Source of the DNA: Myxococcales bacterium
GTDB lineage: Bacteria > Myxococcota_A > Polyangia > Haliangiales > Haliangiaceae
Reading direction: 5' to 3'
Length of the DNA: 64,000 bases
NCBI GenBank assembly: GCA_016707895.1
Contig: JADJGV010000034.1
Location: forward strand, 821,625 to 885,624
Below the pieces are notes generated by a model. The model ran no database searches. It was given only the letters and a program-made list of their open reading frames with translations, and was not told the DNA's origin. Of this stretch, positions 3,318 to 12,384 are shown piece by piece. Within the stretch, counting starts at the first letter, position 1; every line of letters starts with the position of its first letter. A program made the translations under genes and the position numbers.

Positions 3318-6300
3318 TCAGGCGCCGAAGAGGCGGAGCAGGGCGACGGGGGCGATGGCGCCGCGGCGCTGGAGCTCGGCGACGACGGCGGCGTGCTCGG
3401 CGGCGCCGGCGGTGCCGCCGACCAGCGTGGCGACCCGGGCGCGCGCGGCCAGCGCGAACCCAGCCATGCCGGCGGCGGTGGCGGCGCGGCCGGCCTCGAC
3501 GTAGGCGGCGCGGGCGCGGGCCGGCTCGGCGCGCAGCTCGGCCAGGTGGCCGCGGGCCAGCGCGGTGAGCGGCGCGGCCCAGTCGGCGCCTTCGCGCTCG
3601 ACGCGCTGCACGCAGTCGTGCGCGACCCGCAGGCGCGCGGCGCGATCGTGCGGCTCGGCGGCGGCCGCCGCCAGCGCGGCGCGGGCGTGCAGCAGATCGG
3701 CCTCGACGCGCGTCAGCTGCAAGCCGATCAGCGGTGAGCGCCACAGCCGCGGCCAGGCGGCGTCGATCGTGGCCAGCGCCCGCGCCGCGTCGCCGCGGTA
3801 CAGGTCGACCTTGGCCGTGGCGACGGCGCGGAAGTAGTGGTGCAGGTGGAACTCGTCGTCGTCGGTGCGGTGGTCGAAGCCGGCCTCGGCCATCGCCAGC
3901 GCGTCGGCCGGGCGATCGACGATCAGCCAGTACAGGTTGCCGCGGCCGGTGCGCAGCCCGCCCAGCGCGTGGACGTCGCCCAGCTCCTCGGCCTCGGCCA
4001 GCTGCCGCGGGATCGAGGCGATCAGCCCGGCGAGGTCGCCGAGGTACCAGCGGGCGGCGGGCTGGAAGAACTGCACCAGGTTGAGCGCCCAGCGCACGCC
4101 GACGTAGTCGCGCTGCTGGGCCTCGGCCGCGCGCAGCCGGCGGTCGGCCTCGCGCCAGCGCCCGGTGAGCGCGGCGGCCACGCCGGCCCCGCCCTCGAGC
4201 AGCGCGGCCAGCTCGGGGCGGCCGAGCTCGTCGCACAGCGCCCGCGCCGCGGCCTCGACCGCCGCGGTGGCGGTCGCGGACTTGGTGCCGCCGTGGGCGG
4301 TGTGCGCGATCTCGATGCACAGCACCCGCGCCACCCGCTCGGGATCGCCGAGCGCGCGCGCCGCGTCGAGCAGGTGCAGCTGCGGCACGCGCGCCAGCGC
4401 CGGGTTGACGTAGGCCAGGCCGGCGGTCAGCGACCACAGCGTGTCGACCACCGCGCGCTCGCGATCGGTGACCTGCTCGGGCGTGCGGCGGGTGAAGCCG
4501 AAGCCGCGGACCCGGCGGGCCAGCCCCTCGGCCAGGAGCTTGGCCGCCCCGGCGGTGCGGCCGAGCGTGACGCCGGCGCCCAGCTCGTCGCACAGCGCCT
4601 GCGCGTCGGCCAGGCCGCGCCGCAGGTCGCCGCTGCGCAGCGCGTACTCGATCTGCATCCGGCGCAGCGCGATGGCCTCGGCCGGCGTGGCGTCGGGCAG
4701 CGCCGCCGCCAGCGTCGCCAGCGCGGCCTCGATGCGCCCGACGTTGGCGTGGCACTCGGCCTGCCGCCGGCGCAGCGCGACCCGGTGCGCGGGCGTCGCC
4801 GCGCCGGCCAGCGCGACCTCGTACATCGCCGCGGCGTGGCGGAACGCAAGGCTGGCCTCGGCGGCCAGCGCGGCGCGCTCGGCGTGCGGCGCGGCCCGGG
4901 CGGGCTCGCCGGCGGCGCGCCAGTGGGCGACCAGCTCGTCGAGCGGCGGCGCTGGCAGCCGCTCCAGCTCGGCGGCGAGCCGGGCGTGCAGCGCGGCGGC
5001 GGCGGCGGCCGGCAGCGCCGCCAGCGCCGCGGCGCGGATGCGATCGTGGTAGGGTTCGACGTACCACTCGCCGTGGGCCCTGCCGCCCACCAGCAGCCGC
5101 TCGCTGCACAGCCGGGTCAGCGCGGCCAGCCCGTCGCCCAGCCCAGCGGCGGCGATCGCGAACGGCAGCGGCCGGGCGGCCACCGCGGCGAGCGCCAGCA
5201 GCCCGCGGGCGTCGTCGTCGAGCGCGGCCAGCCGGCGGGCCAGCACCTGCTCGAGGCTGGCCGGCGCGGCGGCGGCGTCGGCGGCGCGGTGGCGGGCCAG
5301 CTCGACCAGCAGGAACGGCGTGCCGGCGGCCGCGTCGTCGAGCGCCGCGTCGTCGGCGCCGATCGCCGCGCGCAGCGCGTGGGCCGCGGCGCGATCGAGC
5401 GGGCCCACCGCGAGGTCGCGGACGACGATCGGCGAGCGGCCGCTGGGCTGGGCGACGTCGGTCAGGCGCACCGTCGGCGTGCCGGCGTCGTTCGGCAGCG
5501 CGGCGGCCGGCGTGTCGAGCGGCCGCGACGACAGCACGAACAACGCGCCGGTCCCGACGAAGTAGCGCACCAGCTCGCCGAGCAGGCCGGCGGTGTCGGC
5601 GTTGCTCCACTGCATGTCGTCGAGGAACACCACCGGCAGGCGATCGCCGGCCAGGCGCTGGATCAGCTCGGCGCACGCGGTCACGGCGCGGCGCCGCAGC
5701 TCGGCCGGATCGGCCGGCACCCGCCCCAGCGCTCGCGCGGTGGCGACCGCCTGGACCCGCGCCAGCGCCGGGAACAGCCGCGCCAGCGCCGCGACGTCGC
5801 GCGGCATCGACGCCGCCGCGCGCTCGGCCGGCATCGCCGCCAGCGCGTTGGCCAGGGCGTCGACCATGGTCTCGATGGCCGGGTAGGGCACGGTCTCGCG
5901 CTGGTGGCAGCGGCCGGTCAGCACCAGCGCCGCGCCCGGCTCGAGGCTGGCCAGGTAGTGGCGCACCAGCGCGGTCTTGCCGATGCCCGAGGCGCCGGTC
6001 AGCGCGACCACGACGCTGTCGCCGTCGCGCGCGGTCGCGAACGCCGCCGCCAGCGCGCCCAGCTCGGCGGCGCGACCGACGAACGGCGGCGCCGCGGTGC
6101 GCTCGGCCACCGCGCGGGTGGCCGAGGTCGGCTGGCGGCCCAGCGCGGCCAGCAGCACCGCGCCGTCGCCGCGGCGCGCCGGGCTGCGATCGAGCAGCCG
6201 CATGCAGGCGGCGTCGAGCTCGGGCGGCACGGTCGGCACCAGCGCCCGCGGCGGCGGCGGATCCTCGGCGACCCGGCGCGCCATCACCTGATCGCGGGTG

Positions 6301-7034
6301 CCGCGGAACGGGCGCACGCCGGTGAGCGCCTCGTACAGCATGACGCCGACGCTGTACCAGTCGGCGGCGGAGGTCAGCGGCTGATCGAGCACCTGCTCGG
6401 GCGACATGTAGCCGGGCGTGCCGACCGCCGAGGCCTCGTGGGTGCGCTCGGGATCGCCGCCGTGGCGGACGTCGCCGCTGATCAGCCCGAAGTCGAGCAC
6501 GACCACCCGGCCCGCGGCGGTGACCAGCACGTTCGACGGCTTGAGATCGCGGTGGACCTTGCCGGTGGCGTGGATCGCGGCCACCGCGTCGGCGAGCTGG
6601 AAGAAGCGATCGCGCACGCGCTCGAGCTCGGCCGGGCGGGGCTCGCTCGGCGGCGGCGCGGTGTCGCCGCGGCCGGCGGCGCTGCCCAGGCGCAGGCCGA
6701 GGTGCTCGTGGATCGGCACCCCGGCGACCAGCTCCATCGTGAACCACGGCGGATCGTCGGTGAGGAACAGCTCGTAGAGCCGCACCAGGTTGGGGTGGAC
6801 GACGTCGCGCAGCGTGCGGAACTCGCGCTTGAAGCGGAAGAGGGCGGTGGTGTCGTGGTCGGCGCTCAGCACCTTCAGCGCCACCTCGCGGCCCAGCACC
6901 ATGTCGAGCGCGCGGTAGACCGTGCCGTGGGCGCCCTGGCCGAGCCGGCCGAGCACGAAGAAGCGATCGGGCGCCTCCCACGCCGGGCTGGCCGGGGCGC
7001 GCTGCGGCTCGGAACCGTCCCCCCGGCTCGGCAT
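3318..7034 (-). CDS. Large STAND-type Ser/Thr protein kinase (N-terminal Hanks kinase, central AAA/NACHT-like ATPase, C-terminal TPR-like helical repeats)
   Basis: Kinase motifs are present: GxGxxG (LGQGAHGTVY), VALK, HRDLKPSNVLV, DFGL, GTPGYMSPE. There is a Walker A motif LTGASGIGKTAL. The C-terminus is long and helical. Length is 1238 aa. Confidence 0.85.
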   Translation of the reverse strand: MPSRGDGSEPQRAPASPAWEAPDRFFVLGRLGQGAHGTVYRALDMVLGREVALKVLSADHDTTALFRFKREFRTLRDVVHPNLVRLYELFLTDDPPWFTMELVAGVPIHEHLGLRLGSAAGRGDTAPPPSEPRPAELERVRDRFFQLADAVAAIHATGKVHRDLKPSNVLVTAAGRVVVLDFGLISGDVRHGGDPERTHEASAVGTPGYMSPEQVLDQPLTSAADWYSVGVMLYEALTGVRPFRGTRDQVMARRVAEDPPPPRALVPTVPPELDAACMRLLDRSPARRGDGAVLLAALGRQPTSATRAVAERTAAPPFVGRAAELGALAAAFATARDGDSVVVALTGASGIGKTALVRHYLASLEPGAALVLTGRCHQRETVPYPAIETMVDALANALAAMPAERAAASMPRDVAALARLFPALARVQAVATARALGRVPADPAELRRRAVTACAELIQRLAGDRLPVVFLDDMQWSNADTAGLLGELVRYFVGTGALFVLSSRPLDTPAAALPNDAGTPTVRLTDVAQPSGRSPIVVRDLAVGPLDRAAAHALRAAIGADDAALDDAAAGTPFLLVELARHRAADAAAAPASLEQVLARRLAALDDDARGLLALAAVAARPLPFAIAAAGLGDGLAALTRLCSERLLVGGRAHGEWYVEPYHDRIRAAALAALPAAAAAALHARLAAELERLPAPPLDELVAHWRAAGEPARAAPHAERAALAAEASLAFRHAAAMYEVALAGAATPAHRVALRRRQAECHANVGRIEAALATLAAALPDATPAEAIALRRMQIEYALRSGDLRRGLADAQALCDELGAGVTLGRTAGAAKLLAEGLARRVRGFGFTRRTPEQVTDRERAVVDTLWSLTAGLAYVNPALARVPQLHLLDAARALGDPERVARVLCIEIAHTAHGGTKSATATAAVEAAARALCDELGRPELAALLEGGAGVAAALTGRWREADRRLRAAEAQQRDYVGVRWALNLVQFFQPAARWYLGDLAGLIASIPRQLAEAEELGDVHALGGLRTGRGNLYWLIVDRPADALAMAEAGFDHRTDDDEFHLHHYFRAVATAKVDLYRGDAARALATIDAAWPRLWRSPLIGLQLTRVEADLLHARAALAAAAAEPHDRAARLRVAHDCVQRVEREGADWAAPLTALARGHLAELRAEPARARAAYVEAGRAATAAGMAGFALAARARVATLVGGTAGAAEHAAVVAELQRRGAIAPVALLRLFGA

Positions 7035-7087
7035 CGTCGCGCGATAGTACCGCGGGCGCGAGCGCGAGCGCCGGCTGCGGCCGCCGA

Positions 7088-7733
7088 TCAGTCGCCGGGC
7101 GCGGCGATCGCCTCGGCGCCGACCACCGCCAGCGACACGTCGCGCAGCGCCGCGGTGGCGGTGATGATCATCGCGGTGCCGTCGATGTGGGCGGCCAGAT
7201 CGGCGCGCAGCGCGCCGGCGGCGTCGGCGGTGACCGCGACCGCGAACCGGGTGCGCGGCGCCTTGCGCAGGCCGAGCGGCACGTGGTCACCGTCGGCGTC
7301 GACCAGCGACCAGTCGAGGATCAGGTCGGCCTGGCCGGTGCCGACCAGCGCGTCGGCCGGGAGCTCGTCGGGCAGCGCCACCGCGAGCTGGGTGCCGAGG
7401 CGCAGCACCAGGTCGGTGAAGCGCACCGGGCGCTCGGCGATCATGCCGGCTGGCAGCGTGACGTCGGCCAGCGGCAGCGTCAGGTCCTCGACCAGGAGGT
7501 AGCCGTCGGCGGTGGTGCGCACGACGATCTGGCCGCCGGTGATGGTCGGTGCGATCGCCAGCGCGTGGCCGCTGGCCACCGCGGTGGCGTCGAGGTCGCT
7601 GGCGGTGGTCACCGCCAGCTGGGCGCGATCGGCGAGGCGGTCCACCAGCGGGACCGGGGCGCCCGCGGGATCGAAGCCGCACGCGGCGGTGACGGCGATC
7701 GCGGCGGCGGTGGTGGCGAGGTGCAGGTTCATG
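7088..7733 (-). CDS. Hypothetical lipoprotein
   Basis: Signal peptide plus lipobox MNLHLATTAAAIAVTAACG. The gene is divergent from ycaO. Confidence 0.6.
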
Positions 7734-7794
7734 GCCCCAGTCGTAGTCACCGCGGCGCGCCCGGCAACCGCCCGGCTCGACGTGAATTCGCATC

Positions 7795-7835
7795 TTATTG
7801 ACTTCGGGTCAATAAAACATGAAAATAGTTTCATG
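7795..7835. promoter_or_regulatory. Two adjacent perfect palindromes (TTATTGAC-N5-GTCAATAA and CATGAAA-ATAG-TTTCATG) in an AT-rich island of the divergent lipoprotein/ycaO intergenic region
   Basis: This is the only markedly AT-rich segment in the window. Both dyads are perfect. Confidence 0.5.
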
Positions 7836-7902
7836 AATCGCGGTCGCCGCGGACTCACCCAAGGCCCCTTCGTAGCGGCGCGTACGAAGTACACCCCGGG
7901 CG

Positions 7903-9162
7903 TTGGCCGCCACCGGCGATCCGATCGCGCGCCGCCGCGATCGACACGCCGGCGCGCTGGCCCTACTGTGCGCCGCCGTGATCGCGTCCTGCTTCGGTGA
8001 GCCGCTGGCCGCGCCCGTGCGCGCGCGCACCGGCACGCTGCGCGCCGCGACCGTCGCCGCGACCTGGCGGCGGTTCGCGCCGGTGGCGCCGCGGATCGGC
8101 CTGACCCGGCTGGCCGAGCTGACCGGGCTCGACGCGCTCGGCGTGCCCGTGTGGGCGGCGATCCGGCCGATGGGGCGGTCGCTGTCGTCGGCGCAGGGCA
8201 AGGGCGTGACGTCGCTCGCGGCCAAGGTGTCGGCGCTGATGGAGAGCATCGAGACCTGGCACGCCGAGCAGCGCCGGCCCGATCGGCTGGCCAGCGCGCG
8301 CGCGCTGGGCGCCGCGACCATCGCGCGGGCCCAGGCGCTGCCGCGCCACCCGCGGCGGTTCGCCCTCGACGCGACGCGGCCGTGGGTGCGCGGCGTCGCG
8401 CTGCCCAGCGGCCGCCCGGCGTGGATCCCGTGGGAGGCGGTGACGCTCGACACCGTCGCCGCCGCCGCCGCGCCGCCGCTGTTCGACGTGTCGTCCAACG
8501 GCCTGGCCTCGGGCAACACGCTGGGCGAGGCGATCGTCCACGGCCTGAGCGAGGTGATCGAGCGCGACGCCGAGGCCACCTGGCGGCTCACCGGCCACGA
8601 TCGCCGGGTCGTGCTCGACACGATCGCCGATCGCAGCGTGCGCGGGCTGATCGAGCGCGTCACCGGCGCCGGCGCGCGGCTGTGGCTGTGGGACCTGACG
8701 TCCGACGTCGGCGTGCCGGTGTTCGGCTGCGGGCTGATGCACGATCCGGCCGAGCCGACCTGGCGCGCGGTTGGCTTCTACCAGGGCTTCGGCTGTCACC
8801 TCGATCCGATCATCGCGATGGCCCGGGCCATCACCGAGGCGGCGCAGACCCGGATGACCTACATCGCCGGCGCGCGCGACGACTTCTTCCCCCACGACTA
8901 CCGCCGCGCCACCGATCGCGCCGTGCTGCGCCGGATCTGGCGGCGCTACGCGGCGCCGCCCGACGAGTCGATCGACGCCCGCGACTACCCGCGCCCGCGG
9001 ATCGCCGACCTCGGCGACGCGCTGGCGACGCTGGTCGATGCGCTCGCCGCCGCCGGCAGCCCCGAGGTGCTGGTCGCCGATCTGCGGCAGCCGGGCCTCG
9101 GCGTGCCGGTGGTCAAGGTGCTGGTGCCGGGCCGCGCGACCGCCCTCGAGGGGCTGGGCTGA
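7903..9162 (+). CDS. ycaO: YcaO-domain protein (ATP-dependent amide backbone activating enzyme, TfuA-associated class)
   Basis: The hallmark motif is present: IRPMGRSLSSAQGKGVTS...MESIETWHAE...SNGLASGNTLGEAIVHGLSEVIERDA. It is translationally coupled to tfuA through an ATGA overlap. The start is uncertain (TTG at 7903 or GTG at 7978). Confidence 0.85.
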   Translation: MAATGDPIARRRDRHAGALALLCAAVIASCFGEPLAAPVRARTGTLRAATVAATWRRFAPVAPRIGLTRLAELTGLDALGVPVWAAIRPMGRSLSSAQGKGVTSLAAKVSALMESIETWHAEQRRPDRLASARALGAATIARAQALPRHPRRFALDATRPWVRGVALPSGRPAWIPWEAVTLDTVAAAAAPPLFDVSSNGLASGNTLGEAIVHGLSEVIERDAEATWRLTGHDRRVVLDTIADRSVRGLIERVTGAGARLWLWDLTSDVGVPVFGCGLMHDPAEPTWRAVGFYQGFGCHLDPIIAMARAITEAAQTRMTYIAGARDDFFPHDYRRATDRAVLRRIWRRYAAPPDESIDARDYPRPRIADLGDALATLVDALAAAGSPEVLVADLRQPGLGVPVVKVLVPGRATALEGLG

Positions 9163-9893
9163 TGGCGCGGCGCGACGGCGGCACGATCGTGTTCCTCGGC
9201 CCCAGCCTGCCGGCGGCCGAGGCGCGGGCGCGGCTGCCCGACGCCGAGCTTGCGCCGCCGGTGGCGGTGCTCGACGTGGCGCGCCTGCTGCGGCGCCGGC
9301 GGCCGGCGCGGCTGGCCATCATCGACGGCTACTTCGAGCGGATGGCCGCGGTGTGGCACAAGGAGCTGTTGCTCGCGCTCGAGCTCGGCGTCGAGGTGTG
9401 GGGCGCGGCGTCGATGGGCGCGCTGCGCGCCGCCGAGCTCGATGGCCACGGCATGCGCGGCGTCGGGGCGATCTACCAGGCCTACCGGCGCGGCCGGCTG
9501 ACCAGCGACGCCGAGGTGGCGGTGGCGCACCTGCCGGCCGAGGGCGGCTACCTGGCGGTGTCGGTGCCGCTGGTCAACGTCCGCGCGCAGGTCGCGCGGG
9601 CCCGGGCCGCGCGGATGCTCGACGCGGCGACCGCGCGGGCGACGATCGCGGCCGCCGCCGCGGTGCCCTACTGGGATCGCACCTGGGACGCCGTGGACGC
9701 CGCGCTGCCGGCCCCGACCCGGGCGCGGTTCGCGGCGTGGCGCGCCGCGCACCCGTTCGATCAGAAGGCCGCCGACGCGCGCGCGCTGCTCGACGCGCTG
9801 GCGGCGACGCCGCCGACCGCGCCGCGGGCGACGCCGGTGCCGCGGACCTGGGCGTTCACGCAGCTCCTGGCGCTCGCCGCGCGGCGGCGCTGA
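9162..9893 (+). CDS. tfuA: TfuA-like protein (YcaO partner required for thioamidation)
   Basis: TfuA N-terminus (GGTIVFLGPSL) and conserved core (LAIIDGYFERMAAVWHKELLLALELGVEVWGAASMGALRAAE). Start overlaps the ycaO stop. Confidence 0.8.
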   Translation: MARRDGGTIVFLGPSLPAAEARARLPDAELAPPVAVLDVARLLRRRRPARLAIIDGYFERMAAVWHKELLLALELGVEVWGAASMGALRAAELDGHGMRGVGAIYQAYRRGRLTSDAEVAVAHLPAEGGYLAVSVPLVNVRAQVARARAARMLDAATARATIAAAAAVPYWDRTWDAVDAALPAPTRARFAAWRAAHPFDQKAADARALLDALAATPPTAPRATPVPRTWAFTQLLALAARRR

Positions 9894-9902
9894 ACGCTCC
9901 CG

Positions 9903-11580
9903 CTACAGCTCGATGCCGGCGGCCAGGCACGCGCGCTTGACCTGCGCCTTGAGCCGCGGCTTCGAGACGCTGCGCAGCGCGGCCTTGGCGGCGCCGAGGT
10001 CCTGGTTCTGGCAGTAGGCCTCGGCGCGGATCGCGAACAGCACCTGCGCGCTCGGGAACTTGTTGAGCGCGGCCCGCGTGACCTGCAGCGCCGTGTCGGG
10101 GTCGCCGGCGCGCAGCGCGGCGCGGGCCTCGACCGCCGCGGCCCGGACGTCGGGCGGGTCGGCGTCGTCGTCGGCGGGCGCGCCCCCGCCAGCGTCGAGG
10201 CGCGGCGCGGGCGGGCGGGCGTCGGTGGGGCGGGCGGCGCGGGCGTCGGTGGGCGGCGCGGCGTCGGCCGGCGCGGCGCCGGCGTCGTCGAGCTCCGTCG
10301 GCGGCACCGCGAGCGCGGCGTCGCTGGTGGGCGTCGTCGGCGCGGCGTCGATCGGCGCGCTGGCCACCGCCCCGGCGTCGACCGCGGTGGCCGGCGCGGG
10401 CGTGGTCGGCTTGCCGCCACCGCCGCCGCCGAGCACCACCACCGCGGCCACCGCCGCGCCGGCCAGCACCACGACCGCGGCGACGATCACGCCGGTGCGC
10501 TTCTTCGGCGGCGCCGCCAGCGCCGGGGCCGAGGCCACGGTCTGGGCCGAGGCCACCGGCCCGGCCTTGAGCGCCTCGCGGGCCTGGCTGGCCAGCGCGC
10601 TGCCGTGATCCTCCCGAGCCGACGGTCTGCGCGAACGCGTCCTGGGTGCTCTGCTTGGTCGGCGTGGCCGGCGTCACCGCCGGCCGCACGTTGGTCGGGA
10701 TCGGCGCGCGGCCGGTGGCCAGCGGCGATCCGGTCAGCGCCTCGACGAACGCCGCGACGTCGGGCCAGCGCTCGGCGGCCTTCTTGGCCAGCGCGCGGTC
10801 GACCGCGGCCGCGGCCGCGGCCGGCACCGCCGGCGCCAGGCTCGCCACCGTCGGCGCCGGGTCGAACACCACCTTGAACACCACCTCGGGGATGGTCGCG
10901 CCGCCGAACGCCGCCTGGCCGGTCAGCATCTCGAACACCACCGCGCCCAGCGCGAACACGTCGGTGCGGCCGTCGACCTGATCGTGGCGGCCGGTCGCTT
11001 GCTCGGGCGCCATGTACTGCGGCGTGCCCAGCATCTGGGTGTCCTGGGTCTTCACCGTGTTCGAGCCGTGGATCTTCGAGATGCCGAAGTCGAGCACCTT
11101 GGCCCGCGGCGGGCCCTCGTCCTGGGGGATCAGGAAGATGTTGGCCGGCTTGAGATCGCGGTGGACGATGCCCTCGCGGTGAGCCGCGGCCAGCGCCGCG
11201 CCGACCTGGCGGATGATCGGCGCGACCTCGTCGAGCGTCATCGGCCCGCGCCGCAGCCGGTCGGCCAGCGACTCGCCGACCAGGAGCTCGAGCACCAGGT
11301 AGGGCGTGCCGTCGGGCAGCTGGTTCCAGTCGTGGACCTCGACGATGTTGGGGTGGCCGAGCCGCGACGCGATCTCCGCCTCGCGCCGGAACCGCGCCAG
11401 CGACTCGGCGTCGGCCACGTCGGGGTGCAGGACCTTGATCGCCACCTTCTTGCCCGGCAGCCGGGCGTGGCTGGCCACGAACACCGCGCCCATCCCGCCG
11501 CGCCCCAGCAGCCCCTCGACCGTGTAGGTCTCCGCGATCACGGAGCCCACATCGAGGGCGTGCGTCGGTGAATGCGCCAT
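9903..11580 (-). CDS. Membrane-anchored Ser/Thr protein kinase (kinase, Pro-rich linker, TM helix, TPR-like C-terminus); an apparent frameshift near 10605-10620 splits it across two frames
   Basis: The kinase domain is MAHSP...HRDLKPANIFL...DFGIS...GTPQYMAPE. The C-terminal part is in another frame (TGVIVAAVVVLAGAAVAAVVVL plus a TPR-like tail ending at 9903). The kinase frame itself has no stop until 9856 and reads Arg-rich nonsense. Confidence 0.65.
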
Positions 11581-11607: not shown

Positions 11608-12384
11608 ATGCGCGCAGCCCCTGTCGCCCTCGTCGTGATCGCTACCCTGGCGCCGTGGGGCGCCGCCGACGCCCGGCCCAAGAAGAAGAAGGCCTCGGAG
11701 CTGGTCGACATCAGCGCCGCCCGGGCCCAGCTCAAGGTGCTGACCGACAGCGACGGCGCCATCTACGTGATGGACAGCGGCTACCGCGACGACACGATGG
11801 TGTTCTACGGCGACAAGAAGGTGCTGCACCGCCAGCGCATCATCGGCGGCGGCGCCAACGGCCCGGCGTTCAGCTTCCGGTTCTGGGCGCCGCGCGTCGA
11901 TCACCGCACCGACATCGGCCGCAAGGACAACGGCGACTTCTTCGTGTCGTGCGGCGACCAGGAGGAGATCTTGAAGCCGGTGGCCGACGGCGACGCCCGG
12001 GCGGTGCTGGACAAGGCGGCGTTCAAGACCGCGATGTGGAAGCACCAGGGCCACGTGCTGGCCCGCGACGACAGCGGCACCTACTACTACGTCGATCGGC
12101 TGCGCGACGAGGAGGGCGGCAAGGGCTACCGGATCTTCGTCGGCCCGGCCGGCGCGATGAAGCAGCAGGTCATGAAGAACGTGGTGTCGGACTCGGTCGG
12201 CGAGATCTTCTCGACCAAGAACGGCCAGCTCCGGCTGGTGACCTCGAACTCCGAGACCACCTGGATCAAGGGCAACGTCAAGAGCTCGCTCACGCCGGTG
12301 CCGGTCGAGGACAACATCCGCCTGGTCTACGGCGACCTCGGCGTCTACCCGGCGGGCCTCGGCACGCCGTGCGACGATCTCTAG
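11608..12384 (+). CDS. Secreted hypothetical protein
   Basis: Signal peptide MRAAPVALVVIATLAPWGAADA. The body is lysine-containing with good codon usage. It is divergent from the kinase. Confidence 0.65.
   Translation: MRAAPVALVVIATLAPWGAADARPKKKKASELVDISAARAQLKVLTDSDGAIYVMDSGYRDDTMVFYGDKKVLHRQRIIGGGANGPAFSFRFWAPRVDHRTDIGRKDNGDFFVSCGDQEEILKPVADGDARAVLDKAAFKTAMWKHQGHVLARDDSGTYYYVDRLRDEEGGKGYRIFVGPAGAMKQQVMKNVVSDSVGEIFSTKNGQLRLVTSNSETTWIKGNVKSSLTPVPVEDNIRLVYGDLGVYPAGLGTPCDDL

Follow-up and report, generated by a model that had tools for sequence, protein, structure and literature searches.

The 64-kb window analysed here, positions 821,625 to 885,624 of contig JADJGV010000034.1 from a Myxococcales bacterium, has a G+C content of about 75%, and its proteins match metagenome-assembled genomes labelled Kofleriaceae, Myxococcales or Haliangiales. 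It contains a two-gene unit on the forward strand, in which ycaO (7978..9162), encoding a TfuA-associated (thioamide-type) YcaO protein of 394 aa, is followed by tfuA (9162..9893), encoding a TfuA protein of 243 aa. As an earlier interpretation of the DNA letters (hereafter the sequence-only reading) had described, the pair is flanked by a divergent lipoprotein gene (lipoA; 7088..7732, reverse strand) and a convergent Ser/Thr kinase gene (9903..~11580, reverse strand); the stop codons of tfuA and of this kinase gene are separated by 9 bp. For comparison, 80 loci were collected from one-genome-per-species contigs and supplemented with metagenome contigs, their genes were called with a GC-frame model and their neighbours were clustered. 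The closest locus, L009 (‘Myxococcales bacterium new MAG-81’), encodes a YcaO with 95% identity, and YcaO is immediately followed by a TfuA match in almost all of 88 related loci.

Two details of the gene borders were revised. At the junction of the genes (...GGC TGA TGG...), the TGA stop of ycaO (9160-9162) and the ATG of tfuA (9162-9164) have one base in common, and the genes are translationally coupled by this 1-nt TGATG overlap instead of the 4-nt ATGA overlap initially assumed. The start of ycaO had been placed at 7903; however, the TTG at that position is not conserved. An upstream alignment with L009, L001, L005 and L010 indicates that conservation resumes only at the GTG at 7978, which the relatives share (as ATG in L005), and the TTG is therefore not the ycaO start. 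The resulting length of 394 aa matches that of most of the best-scoring homologues (387-399 aa). Both genes are intact and under purifying selection, with ratios of nonsynonymous to synonymous substitution rates (dN/dS) against close relatives of 0.23 for ycaO and 0.15-0.24 for tfuA.

Family assignment and predicted chemistry

The two protein families named in the sequence-only reading are borne out by Pfam profiles. PF02624 (YcaO) matches the open reading frame (ORF) 7903..9162 over profile positions 1-323 of 325 (E-value 4.7e-77, 259.9 bits, cutoff 25.7 bits), and PF07812 (TfuA) matches 9162..9893 with an E-value of 4.5e-42 (143 bits, cutoff 30 bits). The best NCBIfam model for YcaO is TIGR03266, which represents the YcaO of McrA-glycine thioamidation (220.3 bits, equivalog cutoff 365 bits), and the best model for TfuA is NF033432 (171.8 bits, equivalog cutoff 235.2 bits). 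The SagD model of azoline-type thiazole/oxazole-modified microcins (TOMMs) yields 123 bits for the same YcaO, compared with 220 for TIGR03266, and the uL16/S12-type model NF040716, to which the Escherichia coli enzyme EcYcaO belongs, yields 31.7 bits compared with a cutoff of 700 bits. Among solved structures, the top match of YcaO is the thioamide-forming MJ1094 of Methanocaldococcus jannaschii (6PE3/6PEU; E-value 2e-30), and that of TfuA is the archaeal TfuA 6XP8 (E-value 2e-26).

The ATP/Mg motifs S85-E89-E92, SSNGLASGN...E184, EVIERDAE and TEAAQTR are invariant in an alignment of 16 sequences of the clade. These blocks, at YcaO positions S85, E89, E92, N174-N180, E184, E192-E199 and T286-E287-Q290, align with the corresponding segments of MJ1094. 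The ATP-binding residues, on whose presence the assignment had been made to depend, are thus intact, and the pair stands. The protein has an isoelectric point (pI) of 9.8 and ends in ...PGRATALEGLG, with no PxPxP at its C-terminus. No Pfam match to an E1-like (ThiF) partner or to a recognition element (RRE) of peptides that are ribosomally synthesised and then modified post-translationally (RiPPs) was found among the neighbouring genes. With intact motifs, and with a thioamide-forming pair as the nearest match among both NCBIfam models and structures, the thioamidation-type character first proposed for the pair is upheld.

Based on homology with the characterised archaeal and actinobacterial pairs, we propose a sequence of steps in which (i) YcaO would use ATP to phosphorylate a backbone amide oxygen of a peptide or protein synthesised on the ribosome; (ii) TfuA would supply a sulfide equivalent; and (iii) loss of the phosphate would leave a thioamide, with C=S in place of C=O. 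In characterised systems, TfuA hydrolyses a ThiS-type thiocarboxylate; no ThiS-like small protein ending in GG is present among the called genes. The substrate would lie outside the locus and would most likely be a precursor peptide or a small protein encoded elsewhere in the genome.

Relatives of the pair and the search for a precursor

The related loci fall into three tiers of genomic context. In the window lineage (YcaO at least 79% identical; L001-L005, L009, L010, L092 and L093), the gene order is divergent lipoA, YcaO-TfuA, a convergent Ser/Thr kinase of 521-564 aa and a secreted protein of about 257 aa. In the sister clade (YcaO 52-62% identical; 53 non-redundant loci), the divergent lipoprotein is another one, lipoB, which lies upstream in 34 of 45 loci; in 29 of 37 loci, YcaO-TfuA precedes a full-length Pkinase-AAA_16 homologue of about 1,200 aa. 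The third tier (YcaO 38-43% identical), from Polyangiaceae, Acidobacteriota and Alphaproteobacteria, comprises those retrieved loci that come closest to the window pair without belonging to the Kofleriaceae/Haliangiales clade; here, a kinase- or cyclase-AAA_16-TPR gene followed by one to three precursor-like genes directly precedes YcaO-TfuA.

An N-terminal leader, ‘G-x-(D/S)-G-x-(L/V)-Y-x-V’, is common to these precursor-like genes. In Acidobacteriota the cores end in IIMGTFVNLPLLG, in Polyangiaceae they end in INCYVLNLS, and in Alphaproteobacteria they consist of long tandem repeats (e.g. AGRMAIEA.., ADAGRWAITP.. or ASSRLAIDPGD..). The putative precursors upstream of YcaO-TfuA are located at 2-196 in L075, 9423-9692 and 9693-9974 in L077, 9121-9965 in L078, 9289-9939 in L072, 9295-9927 in L079, 9271-9972 in L080, 9275-9751 in L074, 9017-9814 in L082, 9611-9808 in L083, 284-481 in L084 and 6886-7809 in L087. 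They match no Pfam or NCBIfam family, and we regard them as a putative cross-phylum family of thioamidation precursors.

A profile hidden Markov model (HMM) of the leader recovered precursors in 12 of the 25 loci with YcaO identity below 50%, but in none of the 59 loci of the clades with at least 50% identity and in none of the six frames of the 64-kb window. A precursor HMM and a regular expression for the core motifs likewise retrieved nothing in the window. The absence of a recognisable precursor, noted in the sequence-only reading, thus holds when searched with a leader profile, and the window lacks the precursor gene by which a RiPP cluster is recognised. The small ORF upstream of the pair, which runs from an ATG at 7833 to 8000 and had been suspected of being an artefact, is ruled out as a precursor by frame-breaking indels in the relatives: with 11 nt deleted in L001, about 100 nt deleted in L005 and a hexanucleotide repeat expanded in L010, this stretch is not a coding gene. 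An Rfam scan of 6900-10100 returned nothing significant, a repeat scan returned GC-rich noise only, and PADLOC assigned neither YcaO and TfuA nor the lipoprotein to a defence system. A VgrG/DUF3540-like protein of 112-134 aa in the sister clade, whose ending ‘...IYLN’ recalls the ‘...YVLN’ cores, was rejected as a substrate candidate since it has no profile similarity to them (probability below 3%), is confined to 12 loci and lacks a counterpart in the window.

Instead of a RiPP precursor, the pair might thioamidate a folded cellular protein, as is the case for McrA in methanogens and uL16 in E. coli, which would constitute a third class of protein backbone thioamidation. This would be in line with the lack of a cis-encoded precursor in all 59 loci of the family-level clade although their flanking genes vary, with the purifying selection on the pair and with the more than 120 protein clusters of at least 53% identity found in environmental data; EcYcaO, which modifies uL16, moreover sets an example of a YcaO and a substrate whose genes lie apart (PMC13063428). 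However, the nearest relatives outside the clade, at 38-43% identity, are clearly RiPP-like, with leader-bearing precursors directly upstream, the identity of 52-62% among YcaO proteins of the clade is looser than expected of a housekeeping modifier, the score with the uL16-type model is far below its cutoff, and no candidate protein emerged. We therefore consider a cellular protein target unlikely, although it deserves attention.

We propose, with a probability of approximately 0.7, that the pair represents a genuine TfuA-dependent YcaO system of the thioamide-forming type in a Kofleriaceae/Haliangiales-type myxobacterium, and that its substrate is encoded elsewhere, as the homology and context data suggest. 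Several points weigh against this proposal. Both proteins score below the NCBIfam equivalog cutoffs, and because of these scores the pair is not orthologous to any characterised pair. The thioamide chemistry and the sulfur source are derived from homology, and no thioamide has been observed. The placement of the substrate outside the locus rests on the lack of a precursor within 64 kb, and very short or unusual precursors can escape ORF- and profile-based searches. Furthermore, the link between lipoA and the pair is limited to a narrow lineage (lipoprotein identity of at least 51%) and could reflect inherited synteny only; one distant member of the lipoA family follows a TetR gene and has no YcaO nearby.

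Neighbouring genes and the shared intergenic region

The divergent gene lipoA encodes an acidic lipoprotein of 214 aa (pI 4.4) that starts with MNLHLATTAAAIAVTAAC and carries a lipobox. It is the sole partner of the pair that is conserved in the window lineage. Its close homologues (at least 51% identity; 18 clusters) are divergent from YcaO-TfuA wherever the context is readable, and a profile search widened the family to 239 clusters (at 50% identity) of lipoproteins some 200-230 aa long. The structure model predicts a compact, confident 8-stranded beta-barrel that resembles YceI-like ligand binders and was considered, tentatively, as a ligand-binding barrel of the YceI-like or bacterial lipocalin type, and a dN/dS of about 0.8 at 80% YcaO identity points to fast evolution.

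The strict divergent adjacency in every close relative of known context raises the question of whether lipoA itself is the substrate, modified in the cytoplasm before export in the manner of signal-peptide-bearing RiPP precursors of other systems. The presence of a different lipoprotein at the same position in the sister clade and the pairing of an acidic lipoprotein with a basic YcaO would also fit this role. However, a high pI is common for proteins of genomes with 75% G+C, and there is no homology between lipoA and lipoB (hhalign probability 0.6%). Stretches of the lipoproteins that by eye recall the leader motif of the precursors, ‘VVRTTADGYLLVEDL’ and ‘GETNGRMFDFV’, were rejected at an hhalign probability below 1%, and neither lipoprotein resembles the leader or the core of the precursors (probability below 1%). 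Together with the predicted compact barrel, the fast evolution and the occurrence of the wider family without YcaO, this makes a substrate role of lipoA very improbable. We rather regard lipoA as either a lineage-specific accessory or merely a syntenic neighbour. Because its predicted barrel is of a ligand-binding type, the protein is more likely an accessory, which may bind, carry or protect against the product, than a substrate.

The intergenic region between lipoA and ycaO contains a perfect, conserved palindrome, TTATTGAC-N5-GTCAATAA, at 7795..7815, which is a probable operator. It is unique in the 64-kb window, where no match with up to three mismatches is expected by chance. Exact copies are present in L005 (9912-9932) and L010 (9403-9423), and copies with one mismatch in L009 and L001. 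The palindrome is overlapped by a candidate sigma-70-like promoter of ycaO-tfuA on the forward strand (7798..7826; TTGACT-17-GAAAAT), found as one site in a consensus scan, with 0.0 expected in shuffled sequences, and defined by its consensus match only. It sits in the sole AT-rich, conserved stretch of the intergenic region. The pair would probably be transcribed from this promoter, within a region shared with the divergent lipoprotein gene, and a dedicated repressor or activator is likely. In the sister clade, the very short region between lipoB and ycaO (20-100 bp) carries another inverted repeat at the equivalent position, GAGCATA-N4-TATGCTC, which is conserved and located in the last ~40 bp before the ycaO start (e.g. 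L026 ~9930-9965; L038 ~4230-4262; L021; L056). In L010, a GAGACC/GAGGCC hexanucleotide expansion of about 500 bp (9440-9990) lies between the lipoprotein gene and ycaO; read in frame, it extends the YcaO ORF by (ETEA)n.

The convergent kinase gene encodes a kinase domain (Pkinase, E-value 2.5e-43) and a C-terminal transmembrane segment with TPR repeats (weak TPR matches). Compared with L009 and L001, the window has one extra nucleotide near 10612, which puts these two parts into different frames and is either an assembly error or evidence of a pseudogene; the gene is a single ORF in L001, L005, L009, L010, L092 and L093. It is conserved only in the clade with at least 79% YcaO identity, and a functional link to the pair is without support. 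Beside it lies a secreted protein of 258 aa (11608..12384) that has no Pfam family and is kept in the window lineage. It contains two ‘D-S-(D/S)-G-x-(I/Y)-Y-V-x-D’ motifs (e.g. ‘DSDGAIYVMD’). As a leader-bearing protein it was rejected, since the leader HMM scored it at no more than 1.4 bits and the resemblance is without statistical support.

The frameshifted neighbour, together with the occurrence of cis-encoded precursors in the third-tier relatives and their lack in the window clade, could suggest that a former RiPP cluster lost its precursor and left the pair behind as a decaying or silent remnant. We regard this as hardly credible: both ORFs are intact with invariant catalytic motifs, their dN/dS values are low (0.15-0.24), the pair is kept across dozens of species-level genomes, and the promoter and operator region is conserved.

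The window also encodes a second, large kinase near the pair, a Pkinase-AAA_16 protein of the STAND (signal transduction ATPases with numerous domains) type (3318..7034, reverse strand; 1238 aa; Pfam Pkinase and AAA_16). Its alignment with the sister-clade kinases linked to YcaO spans the full length at 37-42% identity (tblastn; about 35 loci with homologues next to YcaO-TfuA). A functional module of this kinase with the pair could be envisaged by analogy with the Pkinase-AAA_16 genes that follow YcaO-TfuA in the sister clade and with the kinase- or cyclase-AAA_16-TPR genes just upstream of the precursors in Polyangiaceae, Acidobacteriota and Alphaproteobacteria; NCBIfam moreover defines a ‘TOMM system kinase/cyclase fusion protein’, TIGR03903. 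However, the window kinase is not an orthologue of the YcaO-linked kinases. There are 74 protein clusters closer to it than the YcaO-linked kinases, the first YcaO-linked one ranking at about 77, and in the three closest relatives whose long contigs allowed the context to be examined, YcaO is not close by. In L005 and L010, no copy of the kinase lies within 10 kb of YcaO, and the shorter stretches available for L011 and L012 lack it too. Chance adjacency is plausible for so large a family (4,725 matches at an E-value of at most 1e-20), and TIGR03903 reaches 130.3 bits compared with a cutoff of 705.75 bits, in a match restricted to the kinase domain (profile positions 3-200 of 1267). A kinase module at the window locus was rejected on account of the many closer paralogues, of which the three closest examined are not next to YcaO, and such a partnership appears decidedly improbable; judged from these comparisons, the kinase is probably an unrelated paralogue lying there by chance. 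The association of STAND proteins with YcaO-TfuA in other clades may well be real, but provides no evidence on the window locus.

Two observations on the related loci concern these kinases. In the third-tier loci listed by coordinate, the precursor genes always come after a large gene of the kinase- or cyclase-AAA_16-TPR (STAND) type (L072 5677-9162, L079 5756-9181, L080 5924-9247, L077 6194-9289, L078 5721-9002, L074 5538-8756, L082 5537-8713, L083 5907-8942 and L087 3390-6533), an arrangement that recalls the NCBIfam TOMM kinase/cyclase fusion. In the sister clade, the YcaO-linked kinase is usually followed by a conserved ferritin/rubrerythrin-like (diiron-type) protein of 281 aa (about 29 loci; e.g. 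L008 14111-14953 and L019 16157-17002), which could be a tailoring oxidase and has no homologue in the window.

Relation to known thioamidation systems

Among curated models and solved structures, the best match of the pair is the archaeal McrA-thioglycine YcaO-TfuA system of Methanosarcina and Methanocaldococcus, which shares the adjacent two-gene architecture, the ATP/Mg motifs and the lack of a precursor alongside. In contrast to that system, the window host is bacterial, a methyl-coenzyme M reductase is not expected, and both proteins stay below the equivalog cutoffs. The bacterial ‘TfuA-related’ RiPP clusters, such as those of thioviridamide-type thioamitides, thiovarsolins and thioamidated thiopeptides, share the TfuA-YcaO core; the class, most of whose clusters are uncharacterised, is widespread in Proteobacteria-type lineages (PMC8120280, PMC6511847). 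These clusters carry an adjacent precursor and usually tailoring genes, whereas no precursor, RRE, lyase, decarboxylase or transporter gene lies beside the window pair. E. coli YcaO is similar in that its substrate gene, uL16, is not adjacent, and it demonstrates that an orphan YcaO is able to modify folded cellular proteins (PMC13063428), but it is a protein of 586 aa with a pI of 4.4 and without TfuA, whereas the window YcaO is shorter, basic and TfuA-coupled. The leader-bearing clusters of the third tier have a coupled YcaO-TfuA pair in common with the window; however, they possess upstream precursors and a STAND gene, whereas a leader-type ORF and an orthologous STAND gene are both missing from the window.

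The sequence-only reading had put the pair forward as the best candidate in the window for an undescribed modification system, which the literature does not support. By 2015 at the latest, TfuA-associated YcaO proteins whose substrates are unknown had been named as a category of their own (PMC4603692). The antiSMASH class ‘TfuA-related’ has been surveyed (PMC8120280, PMC6511847); a survey from 2021 listed 2,326 unique clusters, of which 70% belonged to Proteobacteria in the definition of that time and just nine were similar to clusters of known thioamidated RiPPs (PMC8120280). Two protein targets are documented: McrA (PMC5589413) and uL16, the target of EcYcaO, which was found by proteome-wide complex prediction (PMC13063428). 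The window pair is a further example of the documented orphan ‘TfuA-related’ class and no new system; such pairs occur in thousands of genomes.

Backbone thioamides are rare. To our knowledge, McrA and uL16 are the only known protein targets, in addition to a handful of peptide natural products. The locus alone reveals neither new chemistry nor a new kind of system. It does add to the orphan TfuA-YcaO pairs, among which further thioamide targets will be found, a clean and minimal example that comes from an uncultured lineage of myxobacteria. Should a conserved cellular or envelope protein be the target in the Kofleriaceae/Haliangiales clade, which we consider unlikely, it would represent the first TfuA-dependent protein backbone thioamidation in bacteria and the third target after McrA and uL16. 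As a family-level clade without a linked precursor whose nearest relatives have one, the group would be a reasonable choice for testing whether proteome-wide modelling of complexes can predict substrates.

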